A DNA stretch of 64,000 nucleotides, taken from NCBI GenBank assembly GCA_013387205.1, contig WARV01000008.1, positions 64,136 to 128,135 of the forward strand, read 5' to 3'. The stretch's first letter is position 1, and each line of letters begins with the position of its first letter. The notes below the pieces were generated by a model. It had not been told where the DNA came from. It ran no database searches and worked only from the letters and a program-made list of their open reading frames with translations. The DNA comes from Patescibacteria group bacterium. Its GTDB lineage: Bacteria > Patescibacteriota > Doudnabacteria > UBA920. The position numbers were made by a program, and so were the translations under genes. Below, piece by piece: positions 12,123-39,442 of this stretch.

Positions 12123-12264
12123 ATTAACCTAGTTATTCTAATTAACCTAGTTGACCTAAATAAATCCCAATAACCAAAGAAATCAAGTTTTGGCTTTAGA
12201 AATTAGGCATTAGACATTATTTAGAATAATTAGAACAATTAGGTCAATTAGAAATTTAAATACT
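12123..12264. repeat. Palindromic intergenic element, family R1 ('aattag / ctaatt' word repeats), copy 1
   Basis: Arms of the aattaacctagttattctaatt ... aattagaacaattaggtcaattag type. The same element is found at 24054 and 39296. Confidence 0.55.
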
Positions 12265-13158
12265 ATGTTCCAAACATTAAAATATTACAAACTATGGTTC
12301 GCGGTTTCCGGGATTATCTTGCTTTTCGGGATTGTTTCACTTTCAGTTTACGGCCTTAAGCTGGGGATAGATTTTAAAGGCGGTACGCTAGCGGAAATCC
12401 AATTCAGCAAGGCTTACGACATAAGCAAAGTCCGTGAATCGGTAAGCCAGTCGGGGATAGGGAACTTCCAGCTGCAAACTGCGGAAAACAACACCATAAT
12501 CATAAAAACCGAAGGATTGGACAAAGAAAAGCATGATTTGATGCTGAATAACATAAAAACCCAAGTAGGAGATTTTAAGGAGATCAGGCTTGATTCCATT
12601 GGTCCGATTGTCGGAAAGGAGCTGAAAAAGAATGCGGTATACCAGTTAGTTATAGTTTCGCTCGGGATTGTGATTTACATTGCGTATGCTTTCAGACGCG
12701 TAGCCAAACCGGTGACATCCTGGAGGTTCGGTTGGTCTGCTGTTATTGCTTTGCTGCATGACTTGCTGTTCGTATTGGGAATTTTTTCCATCCTCGGCCA
12801 TTTCAAAGGCGTTGAAGTGGACAGCTTGTTCGTTACTGCAATGCTCACGGTCTTGGGATTCTCAGTCCACGATACGATTGTGGTTTTTGACAGGATTAGG
12901 GAAAACTTAAAAGTTTACGCGGGTGAAAGCATTGAGTTCGTCGTCAACCATAGCATCAGCCAGACTATAGTCAGGTCTTTAAATACCAGCTTGACCGTGT
13001 TGTTCGTCCTTCTGGCCTTGTTACTGTTCGGCGGAGAAACGATTAGGTATTTTGTTTTTGCCTTATTCATCGGAATTATTGTTGGAACATACTCTTCGAT
13101 ATTCATTGCAAGTCCAGTTTTGGTTTTATGGCAAAATTGGAAAACAAAAAAAGCATAA
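12265..13158 (+). CDS. secF: Protein translocase subunit SecF
   Basis: GIDFKGGT motif; 6 TM helices. Confidence 0.85.
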   Translation: MFQTLKYYKLWFAVSGIILLFGIVSLSVYGLKLGIDFKGGTLAEIQFSKAYDISKVRESVSQSGIGNFQLQTAENNTIIIKTEGLDKEKHDLMLNNIKTQVGDFKEIRLDSIGPIVGKELKKNAVYQLVIVSLGIVIYIAYAFRRVAKPVTSWRFGWSAVIALLHDLLFVLGIFSILGHFKGVEVDSLFVTAMLTVLGFSVHDTIVVFDRIRENLKVYAGESIEFVVNHSISQTIVRSLNTSLTVLFVLLALLLFGGETIRYFVFALFIGIIVGTYSSIFIASPVLVLWQNWKTKKA

Positions 13159-13159
13159 T

Positions 13160-13192
13160 GTCAAAAACCCCCTAAAAAGGGGGTTTTTTAGT
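13160..13192 (+). terminator. Rho-independent terminator
   Basis: aaaaccccctaaaaagggggtttttt. Confidence 0.7.
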
Positions 13193-13196
13193 GTAT

Positions 13197-13225
13197 TTGA
13201 CAAGTATATTGGTTTATGATATACT
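13197..13225 (+). promoter_or_regulatory. Sigma-70-like promoter: TTGACA, 17-nt spacer, TATACT
   Basis: Consensus -35 at 13197-13202, exact 17-nt spacer, -10 at 13220-13225, about 95 nt upstream of the ATG at 13321. Confidence 0.5.
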
Positions 13226-13320
13226 AAGTGAAATTAACGAATTATTAATAATTTGTAACTGAAAGTTTCAGATAATAATTTTCTTCAGTTATCGATTATT
13301 AGTCATTAGTTTCAAATTTT

Positions 13321-14415
13321 ATGGGAATTCTTGATACAATTATCCATACTAAACAAAGCGAATCTCTTACGCAATTCAAGCCTGCTGAAATAGTCAGGGA
13401 AATTTTGGCTAGCTTAAAGGAACGCGACAAACAAATTTTAATGCATAGGTATGGCCTTGAAGGCAAAGAAACCAAAACCTTGGCCGCCATTGGAGCTGAA
13501 CAGAATTTAACCAGGGAACGCGTGCGCCAGATTGAAAAAGATTTGATGAAAAATTTGCGTAAGTCCAGCATAAAACTGGAACCTTTTTCCAAGACAAAAG
13601 AATTTTTGCTCAATATTTTTGCCGAACACGGCAGGATTATTGCCGAGGAAAACTTGCTGTTGTATTTGAATATCAAGGACGAAGAAGAGAAAAATGCGAT
13701 TGTATTTTTGCTGCATTTAATTGAAGAATTGGATAATTTTATCCATGATAACTACAAGAAAAGCTGGGTAACGGTTTTATTCAATGAAAATTTGCTGCAT
13801 ACTTTCACCGGTGAAAGCAAGCAGATTTTGTCTTCCAGTACCAAGCCGCTCCCTTCGGAAGAATTTTTGGCGCATTTCAAGCAGACTGATTTTTACCAGC
13901 AAAACCAGGCTGAATTGAGCGATAAAATCATTTTGAATTTTTTGGAACTGACTGTCCATATTGAAAAGAACGTTTACGGGCATTGGGGATTGTCTAACTG
14001 GAAAGAAATCAACCCGAAAGATGTCGGCGACAAAGCTTATCTGGTCATGAAATACCATGGCAAGCCGGAACACTATTCCGCAATCACCGAAATGATCAAC
14101 AAAGCCAAATTCGACAACAGAACTGCATTTAAAGAAACTGTCCATAACGAATTAATCAAAGATTCCCGTTTTATCCTTATCGGAAGGGGTATATACGCCC
14201 TGTCTGAATGGGGTTACAAGCCGGGCGTGGTCGCGGACGTGATCATTGAAATCTTAAAGCAAGCAGGGCAGCCTTTGACTCGCGACAAAATTATTGAAGA
14301 TGTCTTAAAGAGGCGCATGGTCAAGAAAAATACCATTTTAGTCGGCTTATCAAACAAGAAAATTTTTAAGAAAATCGGAAAGAACCTTTACGCCTTGCAA
14401 GACGGCGTGCAATAA
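13321..14415 (+). CDS. Sigma-70 region-4-like HTH domain protein (putative regulator)
   Basis: ILMHRYGLEGKETKTLAAIGAEQNLTRERVRQIEKDLMKNLRK resembles sigma-70 region 4; the rest is unassigned. Confidence 0.5.
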   Translation: MGILDTIIHTKQSESLTQFKPAEIVREILASLKERDKQILMHRYGLEGKETKTLAAIGAEQNLTRERVRQIEKDLMKNLRKSSIKLEPFSKTKEFLLNIFAEHGRIIAEENLLLYLNIKDEEEKNAIVFLLHLIEELDNFIHDNYKKSWVTVLFNENLLHTFTGESKQILSSSTKPLPSEEFLAHFKQTDFYQQNQAELSDKIILNFLELTVHIEKNVYGHWGLSNWKEINPKDVGDKAYLVMKYHGKPEHYSAITEMINKAKFDNRTAFKETVHNELIKDSRFILIGRGIYALSEWGYKPGVVADVIIEILKQAGQPLTRDKIIEDVLKRRMVKKNTILVGLSNKKIFKKIGKNLYALQDGVQ

Positions 14416-14506
14416 TTTTAAAACAGTCAAGAAGTAGTCTTGAAAAGCAGCTTTTCAGGCTAATTCTGAAGGCAAACCCCCTACTTGATACAAAAATATA
14501 AATTAC

Positions 14507-37685: not shown

Positions 37686-37702
37686 ACTAAGTCCGTTATA
37701 TT

Positions 37703-37972
37703 ATGCAAGACCCCAATCAAATCCCTCAAGAGGAAGCGGCAAAAAAAGAATTCAAGCAAAAGAGAAAAGTTGTCATGGTCGTTTTTGCCGATGCGGCGCT
37801 GGAGTTCGCAATAATGATCTTCCTGCCGTTGTTCGTCTTTATAGAAATTGGCAAAAAATATAACCTGATGCATAATGCCTGGTATTTGATTTTTGGGCTC
37901 ATCCTGGCTCTAAGCATTAGCGCAATTTCAATAGGCACAAGAGCGATAGATTTCAAAAAAAGATTAAAATAA
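37703..37972 (+). CDS. Small 2-TM membrane protein, possibly AtpZ/AtpI-like
   Basis: 89 aa with two TM helices, immediately upstream of atpB. Confidence 0.35.
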   Translation: MQDPNQIPQEEAAKKEFKQKRKVVMVVFADAALEFAIMIFLPLFVFIEIGKKYNLMHNAWYLIFGLILALSISAISIGTRAIDFKKRLK

Positions 37973-37993
37973 TTAAATTTACAAAGATTTTTC

Positions 37994-38869
37994 ATGCTTG
38001 CCATACCACCATTAGCTGCTGAAACAATATTTTATATAGGTTCTTTCCCGGTAACCAACTCTTACATAAATTCTACCATTGTCGTTATCGGCTTTATTAT
38101 CTTCGCTTTCATAATAAACGCCGCAATAAAAAAATATTATCCGCTGAAAAAAGCCCCCAAAGGCATACTTAACTTTTTTGAGGGTGTTTTGGAATTTTTG
38201 CTGGGTTATATCGATAACGTTACAAAAGACCGCAAAAAAACCATCAGGTTTTTGCCGTTAGTCGGTTCCCTGTTCTTGTTTATTTTGGTTTCAAACTGGA
38301 TGGGCTTGCTGCCTGGAATCGGATCCATTGGCATAACGGAAATGGTTAACGGCCACGCAGAATTTATCCCGATTTTCCGTCCCGCTAATACCGATTTGAA
38401 CATGACCCTTTCTATGGCGGTTTTAGCCGTTACAGCTTCCCATTTCTTAGGCATCGTCACCATTGGGTTCTTTAAATACGCAAACAAATTCATTAAATTC
38501 GGGGATTTATACCAGGCTATAAAAAGCATGAAGCCTGTGAATATTTTAACCGCGGTTATTGAATTTTTCGTAGGCTTAATTGAAATTGTTTCCGAAGTGG
38601 CAAAAATGGTTTCGCTTTCTTTGAGGCTTTTGGGCAATATTTTCGCAGGAGAAGTCCTTTTGACCGTGTTGGCCGGCTTAATCCCATTTTTAATTCCTCT
38701 TCCGTTTATGGCTTTGGAATTATTGGTTGGCTTTATCCAGGCAGTCGTATTTTCCATGTTGGCGCTGGTTTACTTGACTATGGCTACTGCAGAAACCCAT
38801 GGCCACGCTGAAACGGGACATGACGAATCTTTTGCCGAAGCCGAAGAAAACCAAACACCGGCAGTTTAA
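37994..38869 (+). CDS. atpB: F0F1 ATP synthase subunit a
   Basis: LSLRLLGNIFAGEVL (the essential Arg motif). Confidence 0.85.
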   Translation: MLAIPPLAAETIFYIGSFPVTNSYINSTIVVIGFIIFAFIINAAIKKYYPLKKAPKGILNFFEGVLEFLLGYIDNVTKDRKKTIRFLPLVGSLFLFILVSNWMGLLPGIGSIGITEMVNGHAEFIPIFRPANTDLNMTLSMAVLAVTASHFLGIVTIGFFKYANKFIKFGDLYQAIKSMKPVNILTAVIEFFVGLIEIVSEVAKMVSLSLRLLGNIFAGEVLLTVLAGLIPFLIPLPFMALELLVGFIQAVVFSMLALVYLTMATAETHGHAETGHDESFAEAEENQTPAV

Positions 38870-39023
38870 AAATTATTCAATTGCGAATTTCGAATTGCGA
38901 ATTTCCGCCAGCTGGCGAATCGTGATCCGTGATACGTAATTGACAAATTAATACCCGCAAGGAGACGTTAAACTAAAATCAATTACGATAATAGTCTACT
39001 GAGCGGGAAAGAAAGGGTGAAGA

Positions 39024-39242
39024 ATGTCACCAGAAGTTGCAGGTTTATTAGCTAAAGCCTTTACAATCGCTATTGGCGGTATTTTTCCAGCCATGGCTAT
39101 TGGCAAAATCGGCAGCAAGGCCGCTGAATCCATCGGACGCAACCCAGAAGCCGCCGACAAGCTGTTCGTTCCGATGCTTTTGTCCATGGCTTTCGCCGAA
39201 GCTATCGCTATTTACGCTTTGGTTGTTACCTTTATTCTCTAA
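39024..39242 (+). CDS. atpE: F0F1 ATP synthase subunit c
   Basis: 72 aa forming a 2-TM hairpin, with GRNPE in the loop and a conserved carboxylate ([13 protein letters not shown]). Confidence 0.9.
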
Positions 39243-39295
39243 AATTAGTTTTAGACTCTTGGGAGAAGATTTCTCCTTTGAGCTTATAACTAATT

Positions 39296-39442
39296 CCCAA
39301 ATTTTTAATTGACCTAATTAACCTAATTGTTCCTAATTATTCTAAATAAATCCCAATTTCTAATTACACAAATATTAGACATTGGATCATTAGTCATTAT
39401 TTAGGTTAATTAGAATAATTAGAGCAATTAGAATAATTCTTT
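39296..39442. repeat. Palindromic intergenic element, family R1, copy 3
   Basis: tgacctaattaacctaattgttcctaattattctaaataaatcccaat ... atttaggttaattagaataattagagcaattagaataatt. Confidence 0.6.

Follow-up and report, generated by a model that had tools for sequence, protein, structure and literature searches.

The intercistronic gaps between secD and secF, murD and ftsW, and atpE and atpF in a 64,000-nt stretch of a Patescibacteria genome (hereafter the window) each hold a copy of a palindromic repeat, R1, and the three copies are probably gene-less, MITE-like miniatures of a selfish hairpin-element family that has spread through the CPR/Patescibacteria. Their arm sequences identify them as members of this family, whose full-length form consists of two inverted arms around one small gene of the PF05635/TIGR02436 four-helix-bundle type, which is known from intervening sequences (IVSs) in 23S rRNA genes; the R1 copies would have lost this gene, leaving the arms with a few dozen bases between them.

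The R1 copies of the window

All three palindromes of the original prediction are present, and Pfam matches confirm the flanking genes (Table 1). The intervals first given to the repeats corresponded to whole intergenic gaps and are here replaced by the cores, with copy C starting at 39307, not 39296. The copies are imperfect palindromes of 119-135 nt with arms of 40-45 nt and no ORF. Near-identity of the arms, as had been claimed, extends to 100% between copies B and C (43 nt and 42 nt), which have unrelated centres, but copy A is only 70-79% identical to either. Likewise, the description of the arms as mutual reverse complements is correct for the CTAATT/AATTAG hexamers and the inner CTAAATAA/TTATTTAG words, which pair, but not for the 3-nt spacers, which mostly do not; a hand count from the sequence gives ~77% complementarity for the arms of copy B.

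Table 1. Coordinates in the window of the R1 copies and neighbouring features.
Feature	Coordinates	Strand	Details
secD	10602..12122	+	Pfam SecDF_P1_head, SecD_1st, SecD_SecF_C
R1 copy A, secD-secF gap	12122..12256	.	left arm 12122-12163, centre 12164-12216, right arm 12217-12256
secF	12265..13158	+	Pfam SecD_SecF_C, E 2e-56
murD	22653..24053	+	Pfam Mur_ligase_M/C, MurD-like_N
R1 copy B, murD-ftsW gap	24048..24166	.	left arm 24048-24090, centre 24091-24124, right arm 24125-24166
R1 copy B tail, word-like	24167-24179		reaches ftsW ATG
ftsW	24180..25289	+	Pfam FTSW_RODA_SPOVE, E 7e-105
atpE (c subunit)	39024..39242	+	Pfam ATP-synt_C
Native hairpin, between atpE and R1 copy C	~39247-39292		
R1 copy C, atpE-atpF gap	39307..39438	.	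left arm 39307-39349, centre 39350-39396, right arm 39397-39438
atpF (b subunit)	39443..40018	+	Pfam ATP-synt_B

Copy A begins on or directly after the secD stop codon (12120-12122), and the first unit of copy B (AATTGACC) contains both the last codon of murD and its TGA stop (24051-24053). The copies end, as anticipated, a few nucleotides before the downstream ATG: 8 nt for copy A and secF, 13 nt from the last AATT of copy B to ftsW, and 4 nt for copy C and atpF. Each is predicted to form a long interrupted hairpin on the plus strand, with energies of -24.6 kcal/mol (z -3.2) for copy A, -31.9 kcal/mol (z -5.0) for copy B and -32.7 kcal/mol (z -5.4) for copy C. End profiles place copy B in the same orientation as its operon and copy C in the opposite one, and the centre of copy C, read on the minus strand, opens with CTAAATA-ATG-ACT-AAT-GAT, which resembles the start of the gene of the full-length element.

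A strict 26-nt arm pattern, allowing at most one mismatch, has five matches in the window and 0.00 in shuffled sequences, and a relaxed pattern has 17 matches compared with 6.5 +/- 2.7, a count that none of 100 shuffles reaches; the similarity greatly exceeds what chance or shared AT-rich low complexity would give. The window is also rich in short-period intergenic repeats.

Family members in other genomes, the PF05635 gene and empty sites

The arms of the R1 family are arrays of 9-nt units, each a 3-nt spacer from a small vocabulary (ATT, AAC, GAC, ATA, GTT or GCT) followed by CTAATT, and arms most often contain five AAT(T) cores. The 26-nt arm pattern, which was derived from this window and used to choose the loci, matched more than 116 loci, a minimum count, across 185,579 species genomes; about 92 of 116 are named as CPR/Patescibacteria lineages of many classes among the matches listed, and the 9-mer vocabulary is common to different CPR classes. 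From these matches, the hairpin element is evidently widespread in ultra-small CPR/Patescibacteria. At least 123-144 of the fetched loci have arms that share 96-100% identity with those of the window, and the arms of copy A have counterparts in at least 123 loci (up to 96% over 52 nt).

Among the matches listed, the arm-pattern loci yield 108 paired elements, whose lengths have a median of ~112-120 nt; 72 of these elements lie between co-directional genes and one inside a long ORF, as judged with a crude ORF caller. The upstream stop codon falls between -24 and +15 nt from the element end in the same matches (median ~0) and is often inside the element, and the downstream start codon is mostly 1-15 nt past the other end. 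Stop codons are present in every frame of the arms, and therefore the upstream gene stops either at the element's edge or within it; the proximity of stop and start could also simply reflect insertion into very short gaps. The orientation of miniature copies is weakly resolvable by end profiles, which score 27 as co-oriented, 15 as anti-oriented and 25 as ambiguous.

Longer versions in six loci (L023, L034, L060, L066, L097 and L116) enclose an ORF of ~120 aa between the arms, with matches to PF05635 (E 1e-10 to 1e-12) and TIGR02436 (E 3e-20). Conversely, 63 of 73 metagenomic PF05635 loci with both flanks present have at least two CTAATT upstream and at least two AATTAG downstream of the gene, and 68 of 73 have flanking inverted repeats with z>4. 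The full-length elements are 405-553 nt long (about 450 nt), and in 59 of 62 cases their gene points the same way as the gene upstream. In L125, the arm that directly follows a PF05635 gene matches the right arm of copy B at 100% over 44 nt, whereas other words make up the arms around the distant PF05635 genes of L105 and L089. A PDB relative, 2RLD, has five chains. There is no full-length copy within the 64-kb window, no longer version enclosing another ORF among the ~210 loci fetched, and neither a transposase nor another known mobility gene was found associated with the element. Given the position of the PF05635 gene between the arms in 63 of 73 loci, the window copies would thus be MITE-like miniatures of an IVS-type hairpin element in mRNA spacers.

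The orthologous gaps of relatives, as the original prediction had proposed to compare, lack R1 at all three sites in every relative examined. The murD and ftsW genes overlap by 7-8 nt with no gap in L119 and L120/L121, the secD-secF gap is 28 nt (L209), 50 nt or 104 nt and is without R1, and the atpE-atpF gap in four relatives has only the native hairpin or other elements; in L204-L207 a hairpin of different sequence occupies the native-hairpin position 3' of atpE. Palindromes that relatives do have in these gaps are built from quite different words. The absence of R1 at all three sites, together with the murD-ftsW overlap in two relatives, marks the window copies, by sequence comparison, as lineage-specific insertions into junctions where the genes of relatives lie close together or overlap. 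Movement within a genome is indicated by two whole 148-nt elements that are 95% identical in flanks of ~50% identity, which shows that whole elements have spread to unrelated sites inside one genome. Some sites are occupied in different species (L102/L110 and L039/L098), and alignment of the L102/L110 orthologues (arms 96-100%, centre 88%, coding flanks 77-84% identical) shows arms that are better conserved than the adjoining coding DNA. No direct repeat beyond chance was seen outside the terminal AATT, and duplication of a palindromic AATT target would be indistinguishable from the inverted repeat itself.

Proposed mechanism and alternative explanations

A miniature of this kind would be transcribed together with the host operon, its arms would fold into an interrupted hairpin, and the upstream stop and downstream start would then lie side by side at the base of the stem. 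This juxtaposition may be what makes the insert tolerable, either by preserving translational coupling or, as with rRNA IVSs, by letting RNase III excise it; cleavage by RNase III, or a similar effect on the RNA, is plausible. The 9-nt units could be protein recognition sites, for which the most likely binder would be the element's own four-helix-bundle protein, putatively supplied in trans by full-length copies. A broader proposal, which we put forward as a tentative and somewhat doubtful one, is that IVS-type hairpin elements are a distinct autonomous mobile class in which the sole protein, an Avd-like and pentameric PF05635 four-helix bundle, reads the 9-nt arm units and directs spread or maintenance; R1 would be its non-autonomous miniature, rRNA IVSs would be the same elements landed in rRNA, and the hairpin design would render insertion into coupled junctions nearly harmless.

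The reading of R1 as a MITE, one of the two offered originally, is right in its essentials but not in full. Like a MITE, the R1 elements are short (<~600 bp), non-coding and bounded by TIRs, are dispersed (three in 64 kb), are present or absent at orthologous sites and are miniatures of a longer element that shares their arms. They do not qualify as classical MITEs, since the only gene of that longer partner is PF05635/TIGR02436 and not a transposase; no target-site duplication was seen outside the terminal AATT. An ordinary transposase-driven MITE, in which the arms are TIRs for a transposase encoded elsewhere (an unrecognised IS) and the PF05635 gene is a passenger, would account for the size, the inverted arms, the many copies in both orientations and the whole-element paralogues at unrelated sites. 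Repeated subterminal binding motifs are moreover typical of some transposons, for example Ac/Ds, CACTA, IS21 and Tn7. It nonetheless seems unlikely, because the PF05635 gene stands alone between the arms in those 63 loci, within elements of 405-553 nt, no longer version with a different ORF was found among the ~210 loci, and target duplication is not seen outside the palindromic terminal AATT.

The other original suggestion, an RNA processing or attenuation structure, found no positive support. As a host-selected element, R1 would be an intercistronic processing, stabilising or attenuation signal tuning secF, ftsW and atpF, and the stable predicted hairpins, the constant position between cistrons, the sites occupied across species with arms more conserved than the coding flanks, and the precedent of RNase III processing of rRNA IVSs are all compatible with this. 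However, RNAalifold on 37 copies finds 16 pairs, all within invariant words and with no compensatory change, so that the proposed check for folding and covariation yields stable predicted hairpins yet no covariation, and mirrored spacers in the arms are less complementary than shuffled pairings, that is, anti-complementary. R1 is also missing from the same gaps in all relatives examined, occurs in both orientations and shares its arms with a selfish-looking gene. No terminator-like site (a GC-rich stem and T run) is present in or at any of the three copies and no promoter signal was found there; Rfam 15 at gathering thresholds reports only four tRNAs in the window, and at E<=1 there is no match to R1 or R2 and a single weak, spurious match for a full-length element. 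We regard a host-selected RNA signal as decidedly improbable. R1 is set aside both as an intrinsic terminator, for want of such a site at the three copies, and as a structured cis-regulatory RNA, with 0 of 16 consensus pairs showing a double change and spacer pairing below the shuffled expectation.

Slightly less probable still, by our estimate, is a double-stranded DNA binding array for a host protein, in which CTAATT at 9-bp spacing is a site of the nucleoid, replication, uptake-signal or gyrase type and the palindromic layout is a by-product. Known examples are REP/BIME elements, to which gyrase and IHF bind, and uptake sequences, which can be arranged in inverted pairs; in R1 it is the words and not the pairing that are conserved, with a 9-mer vocabulary shared by CPR classes. 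Against this are the tight link to one small gene enclosed by the arms, the sporadic lineage-specific insertions in place of fixed positions, and the quite different words of the palindromes in the relatives' gaps. Chance similarity of AT-rich, periodic low-complexity spacers, which the many short-period repeats of the window might have suggested, is refuted by the strict-pattern matches that shuffling does not reproduce, the two identical arms of 42-43 nt and the hundreds of matching elements in other genomes.

The interpretation of R1 as miniatures of a selfish hairpin element has several implications. The family offers hundreds of natural IVS-type copies outside rRNA, full-length and miniature, with defined 9-nt units and with empty and occupied orthologous sites, and therefore the protein target, the movement of the element and its removal by RNase III are directly testable. 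It would explain many of the odd "large" intercistronic gaps in CPR genomes and would mean that a mobile element provides essential genes with their stop codons and perhaps their start regions, and palindromes of this type can break assemblies and mislead gene callers in CPR genomics. No description of the family was found in the searchable literature, the coverage of which is incomplete.

Comparison with known hairpin elements

The R1 elements resemble bacterial MITEs that are co-transcribed with genes (Neisseria Correia/NEMIS, enterobacterial ERIC/IRU and pneumococcal RUP) in being imperfect palindromes of 100-160 nt in intergenic DNA that is, for R1 presumably, transcribed, and in being present in many copies and in either orientation. 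Correia transcripts are reportedly cut by RNase III, and ERIC is said to affect mRNA stability, in work attributed to De Gregorio et al. 2002-2005. These elements have no sequence relation to R1, and MITEs of this type span a genus whereas the R1 family spans the whole superphylum; Correia elements carry IS-like inverted repeats and a TA duplication, whereas no duplication is seen for R1 outside the terminal AATT and its long partner encodes PF05635 and not a transposase. REP/BIME elements with RAYT (TnpA-REP) are likewise extragenic palindromes, mosaics of few motifs associated with a dedicated small gene flanked by its own repeats, and the repeat appears to be particular to each gene lineage, as for the other-word arms in L105 and L089. 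However, REPs are GC-rich and 20-40 nt long, whereas R1 is AT-rich, ~130 nt long and associated with PF05635, and R1 is not assigned to them; RAYT is an IS200/IS605-type Y1 transposase, and the R1-family protein, an Avd-like helical bundle, is not known to catalyse any reaction. The PF05635 protein is of the same four-helix-bundle superfamily as Avd, the accessory protein of diversity-generating retroelements, which binds nucleic acid and a reverse transcriptase. Unlike in Avd systems, neither a reverse transcriptase nor a template or variable repeat was seen beside R1-family elements, the flanks of which are ordinary housekeeping genes.

Also among the closest known systems are the 23S rRNA IVSs with an S23p/PF05635 ORF in Leptospira, Coxiella burnetii, Xanthomonas and Brucella, the earliest accounts of which date from 1990-93 (Burgin et al. 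1990; Ralph and McClelland 1993, both cited by PMC4990558). Terminal inverted repeats bound these sequences, the loop holds the PF05635 (S23p) ORF preceded by short tandem repeats, and RNase III excises them (PMC4990558); CPR rRNA insertions also contain PF05635 ORFs (PMC11270868). The R1 family shares with them the stem-forming terminal complementary sequences, here predicted to give a long stem, with the ~120-aa four-helix-bundle gene in the loop, as well as the total length of ~430-450 nt, the short tandem repeats beside the ORF start, the ORF-less short versions and, probably, a gene dependent on host transcription (PMC4990558). Excision by RNase III, with the cut ends not rejoined, is established for the rRNA IVSs, whereas the R1 elements are known here from sequence alone. 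The window copies are not rRNA IVSs proper, being located between protein-coding genes and not in a 23S or 16S rRNA helix, and no rRNA motif occurs in the ~210 fetched loci. In further contrast to the rRNA IVSs, gene-less copies are common in the R1 family, and its arms are arrays of conserved 9-nt units common to CPR classes.

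R1 copies in the window and the corresponding gaps in relatives

The window contains three copies of the palindromic repeat family R1, one imperfect palindrome in each of the three gaps named in the original prediction, with neighbours assigned by Pfam as SecD and SecF, MurD and FtsW, and ATP synthase c and b. The arms were said to be near-identical and mutual reverse complements. The first claim stands for copies B and C, whose 43-nt and 42-nt arms are 100% identical even though their centres are unrelated, but not for copy A (70-79% identical to both); as to the second, the hexamers and inner words pair but nothing else does. 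The arms are built of repeated units of 9 nt, occasionally 10, in which a 3-nt spacer from a small vocabulary (mainly ATT, AAC, GAC, ATA, GTT and GCT) precedes CTAATT, with the opposite arm reading AATTAG plus spacer; arms are closed by AATT at the outer end and CTAAATAA/TTATTTAG at the inner end, and the centre is composed of 7-8-nt words of the CCCAAT/GTCTAAT type. The modal arm has terminal AATT, three CTAATT words and the inner word, making five cores. All three copies fold on either strand into long, interrupted hairpins (z -3.2 to -5.4), and mirrored spacers pair below the level of shuffled pairings (1.51 vs 1.77 +/- 0.045 of 3 nt), 13% being fully paired as against 27%. Rfam has no counterpart of R1, whether gathering thresholds or E<=1 are applied, and terminator and promoter consensus scans around the three copies yield nothing above the shuffled level, which speaks against an intrinsic terminator or promoter carried by R1.

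As predicted, the copies end a few nucleotides before the downstream start, with ATG at 8 (A), 13 (B) and 4 nt (C). At copy A the stop codon of secD reaches the element's first base, and murD terminates within copy B, its TGA falling in the first unit. The segment leading into and spanning the start codon of ftsW (AATTCTAATCAATGTCTAA) is similar to the inner left word and following ATG of the full-length element described below, and ftsW may thus now use a start codon derived from the element.

For FtsW, AtpA and SecF of the window, the nearest relatives (70-83% identity) bear the names Patescibacteria or Candidatus Doudnabacteria. Relatives share the gene order around the window; in those examined, all three gaps lack R1. 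In L119 and L120/L121 (L-numbers denote about 210 loci fetched from other genomes) murD and ftsW overlap by 7-8 nt (ATGGTAA/ATGGGTAA) with no gap, and in L117 they are separated by 143 nt of unrelated, GC-rich sequence. The atpE-atpF gaps of L204 and L205 (75 and 81 nt) contain a native hairpin only, and those of L206 and L207 have, besides this hairpin, palindromes composed of other words; the secD-secF gaps of L209, L210 and L208 are 28, 50 and 104 nt, all without R1. Judged by sequence comparison, the three R1 copies are insertions. The native hairpin in the window is directly 3' of the atpE stop and distinct from the R1 insert after it; because L204-L207 have a hairpin of different sequence in the same position, it looks like a conserved structure.

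The gene-bearing form and its distribution

In several loci R1 arms lie about 400 nt apart around one ORF of ~120 aa, which matches PF05635 '23S rRNA-intervening sequence protein' (E 1e-10 to 1e-12), NCBIfam TIGR02436 'four helix bundle protein' and PDB 2RLD (five chains). Seven PF05635 proteins from a range of lineages share 56-76% identity with the first one found, that of L066, and an HMM of the enclosed proteins identifies further copies in L097, L105, L089, L114 and L116, with none in the 64-kb window. A metagenome search with the protein alignment returned at least 565 relatives, the best 80 of which were kept. Within this set both flanks are present at 73 gene loci, 63 of them with at least two CTAATT words upstream and at least two AATTAG downstream, and 68 with flanking inverted repeats at z>4; full-length elements are 405-553 nt. 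The gene is co-oriented with its upstream neighbour in 59 of 62 cases and, where both neighbours point the same way, is co-oriented rather than opposite by 38 to 1. Its ATG falls within the inner words (CTAAATA-ATG-ACT-AAT-GAC...), and the centres of the window copies keep words resembling this gene start. Among the fetched loci, 123-144 have arms that match those of the window, at up to 96-100% identity; one such arm is that just 3' of the PF05635 gene in L125. The R1 copies are probably miniatures, lacking the gene, derived from a hairpin element of the type found as intervening sequences (IVSs) of rRNA genes. Around more distant PF05635 genes (L105, L089) the palindromic arrays use different words. 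In L114 and L116, from unrelated lineages, a complete miniature adjoins the PF05635 gene (a pseudogene in L114) and a second right arm follows, an arm-arm-gene-arm order that suggests nested or tandem insertion.

A word-cluster finder identified 108 paired elements (median length about 112-120 nt) in the loci listed. By a simple ORF caller, 72 of these miniatures lie between co-directional genes, 9 between convergent and 4 between divergent genes, and 1 inside a long ORF. Relative to the element end, the stop codon of the upstream gene falls between -24 and +15 nt (median near 0) and is thus often supplied by the element. Stops occur in the arms in every reading frame, and the downstream start codon is mostly 1-15 nt past the other end. 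Profile-based orientation gives 27 co-oriented, 15 anti-oriented and 25 ambiguous miniatures. The strict pattern (26 nt, taken from the window arms) gives 34 vs 33, and was rejected as an orientation marker, being present in either arm of full-length elements (7 vs 10).

When 185,579 species-representative genomes were scanned for TTATTTAGNNTAATTAGNNNAATTAG, at least 116 loci matched. The locus sets were seeded with the arm pattern from this window, and taxon labels of MAGs were used as deposited. About 92 of the 116 matches listed carry names from the Patescibacteria superphylum (CPR): Saccharibacteria, Yanofsky-, Staskawicz-, Zambryski-, Harrison-, Doudna-, Roizman-, Shapiro-, Davies-, Falkow-, Magasanik-, Moran-, Berkel- and Peregrinibacteria, and WWE3. 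Others are labelled 'bacterium' (11), Gammaproteobacteria/Pseudomonadales (11), Chlamydiota (1) and Woesearchaeota (1). R1-type elements occur on contigs with the last three kinds of label in L022, L081, L016 and ten other loci. IF-2 of L016 ('Gammaproteobacteria', the sole non-CPR label checked) clusters at >=90% with a Patescibacteria protein, so mis-binning is likely behind the non-CPR labels. A phage origin is argued against by only 2 matches in 2.9 million viral contigs.

One Doudnabacteria genome has two whole 148-nt elements that are 95% identical, with flanks at about 50%. Some sites are occupied across species, and in L102/L110 identity is 96-100% in the arms, 88% in the centre and 77-84% in the coding flanks, from which we infer that the arms are under constraint or homogenised.

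Other word-array repeats and small-gene cassettes

Family R2 has the same palindromic periodic design with the words CCGAAT/ATTCGG, and its copies have no match in the roughly 210 fetched loci. Many further intergenic gaps consist of palindromes or arrays of 7-10-nt words in vocabularies of their own (ACTAAT, TACGAAT, GTAAAAT, GCGAATT, TTCGAA, ACTAAAT), and spacers made of periodic words seem to be typical of this genome as a whole. The words in the atp-operon palindromes of L206 and L207 differ (GAAATAC/GTATTTC, ATCCGGAT, AACAA/TTGTT, TACGGAT), and the atpF-atpH and atpH-atpA gaps of L204 and L205 are 2-20 nt; different families have thus colonised the same junctions time and again.

A DUF559 (Vsr-like endonuclease) gene, wedged between NYN-domain and PIN-domain genes, is bracketed by two 27-nt hairpin repeats (89% identical), and the region looks like another small-gene cassette. 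A truncated GxxExxY/PDDEXK_3 gene is bracketed by CGCTGAT/ATCAGCG word arrays; these words also fill one other gap in the window and the secD-secF gap of L210. The murD coding sequence contains in-frame heptamer arrays in regions reading as loops (…PLSKVKGQRS…, …LQFRISNFEFQ…). A solo CTAAAT/CTAATT-type array resembles a lone left arm, and the 32-nt intergenic repeat AAGAAGTAGTCTTGAAAAGCAGCTTTTCAGGC occurs twice (94% identical).

Coordinates of repeats and associated features (window positions unless a locus is named)
Feature	Coordinates	Location	Remarks
R1 copy A	12122-12256	secD-secF gap	trimmed to repeat
R1 copy B	24048-24166	murD-ftsW gap	trimmed to repeat; word-like tail as far as 24179
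R1 copy C	39307-39438	atpE-atpF gap	trimmed to repeat
Segment at ftsW start	24167-24185
Native hairpin	39247-39292 (approximate)
Miniature, gene and second right arm	925-1435	L114
Miniature, gene and second right arm	148-640	L116
R2 copy	40003-40113	atpF-atpH gap
R2 copy	59085-59193	gap before pheS
R2 half copy	31856-31965	upstream of ORF at 31966
Word-array/palindrome gaps	9167-9288, 10400-10560, 20839-20925, 38871-38905, 53540-53586, 58561-58700
atp-operon gap palindromes	2688-2844, 3404-3492, 3884-4001	L206
atp-operon gap palindromes	2413-2539, 3129-3210	L207
DUF559 region	54134-54578
DUF559 gene	54180-54530		116 aa
Hairpin repeats	54134-54160, 54552-54578	either side of DUF559 gene
NYN-domain gene	53587-54105
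PIN-domain gene	54564-55037
Truncated GxxExxY/PDDEXK_3 gene	61873-62118	within 61847-62307	TIGR04256
CGCTGAT/ATCAGCG gap	45124-45167
Heptamer array GTCAAAG	22904-22928	murD	x3.6
Heptamer array AATTTCG	23053-23079	murD	x3.9
Solo array	51199-51231	between minus-strand tRNA genes 51119-51192 and 51282-51355
32-nt repeat	14429-14460	gap before ORF at 14507
32-nt repeat	33801-33832	gap before ORF at 33872

Proposed working, alternatives and relation to rRNA intervening sequences

R1-family elements enter tight or overlapping junctions with the upstream ORF ending at or inside them, their arms are conserved, and the gene-bearing form is strongly co-oriented while miniatures occur in both orientations. 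An inserted element would be co-transcribed with the operon, and its hairpin would juxtapose stop and start at the stem base. Either removal of the hairpin by RNase III, by analogy with rRNA, or survival of termination-reinitiation coupling would explain how insertion into coupled essential genes is tolerated. Because words rather than pairing are conserved, the arm units look like protein recognition sites, the obvious candidate being the element's own PF05635 protein. This family forms pentamers (PMC4990558), and a link between the five cores of the modal arm and a pentameric protein (the five chains of 2RLD) is suggestive only.

Of the two readings first offered, that of MITEs is right in that the copies are miniature, gene-less and inserted, but no transposase was found with the element and no target-site duplication beyond chance outside the terminal AATT (a duplicated AATT target, itself palindromic, would look the same as the inverted repeat), and a transposase-driven MITE with PF05635 as cargo is unlikely. 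The second, an RNA processing or attenuation structure shared by unrelated operons, would make R1 a host-selected regulatory RNA; we consider this very improbable, as R1 is absent in relatives, RNAalifold reports 0 compensatory pairs among 37 copies, and both orientations occur. The units could alternatively form a host DNA-binding array, which the link to the PF05635 gene and the sporadic sites make less probable still. Chance similarity of AT-rich sequence is refuted by 17 matches to a relaxed arm pattern (6.5 +/- 2.7 in dinucleotide-preserving shuffles) and 5 window matches to the strict pattern with <=1 mismatch (0.00 in shuffles).

The proposed derivation of R1 from an IVS-type element can be set against the known examples. 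Classical rRNA IVSs, about 430-450 nt in size, have a terminal inverted-repeat stem with an S23p/PF05635 ORF in the loop and short tandem repeats before it; they rely on the host for transcription, and RNase III cuts them out (PMC4990558); CPR rRNA insertions with PF05635 ORFs have also been reported (PMC11270868). No rRNA motifs are present in any of the ~210 fetched loci, which speaks against an rRNA location; on this evidence the home of the R1 family is the mRNA spacer. None of IVSs, PF05635 proteins or MITEs is new in itself, and we found no prior description of R1 in the part of the literature covered. The R1-family design, an inverted-repeat stem with a PF05635 ORF in the loop, matches that of the classical IVS, but it is located in mRNA spacers whereas the IVS is in rRNA; what appears to be new is a family spread across CPR, with arms built of units, that resides in the mRNA spacers between cistrons and has abundant miniature derivatives, together with a conserved repeat vocabulary that is paired directly with PF05635 genes.
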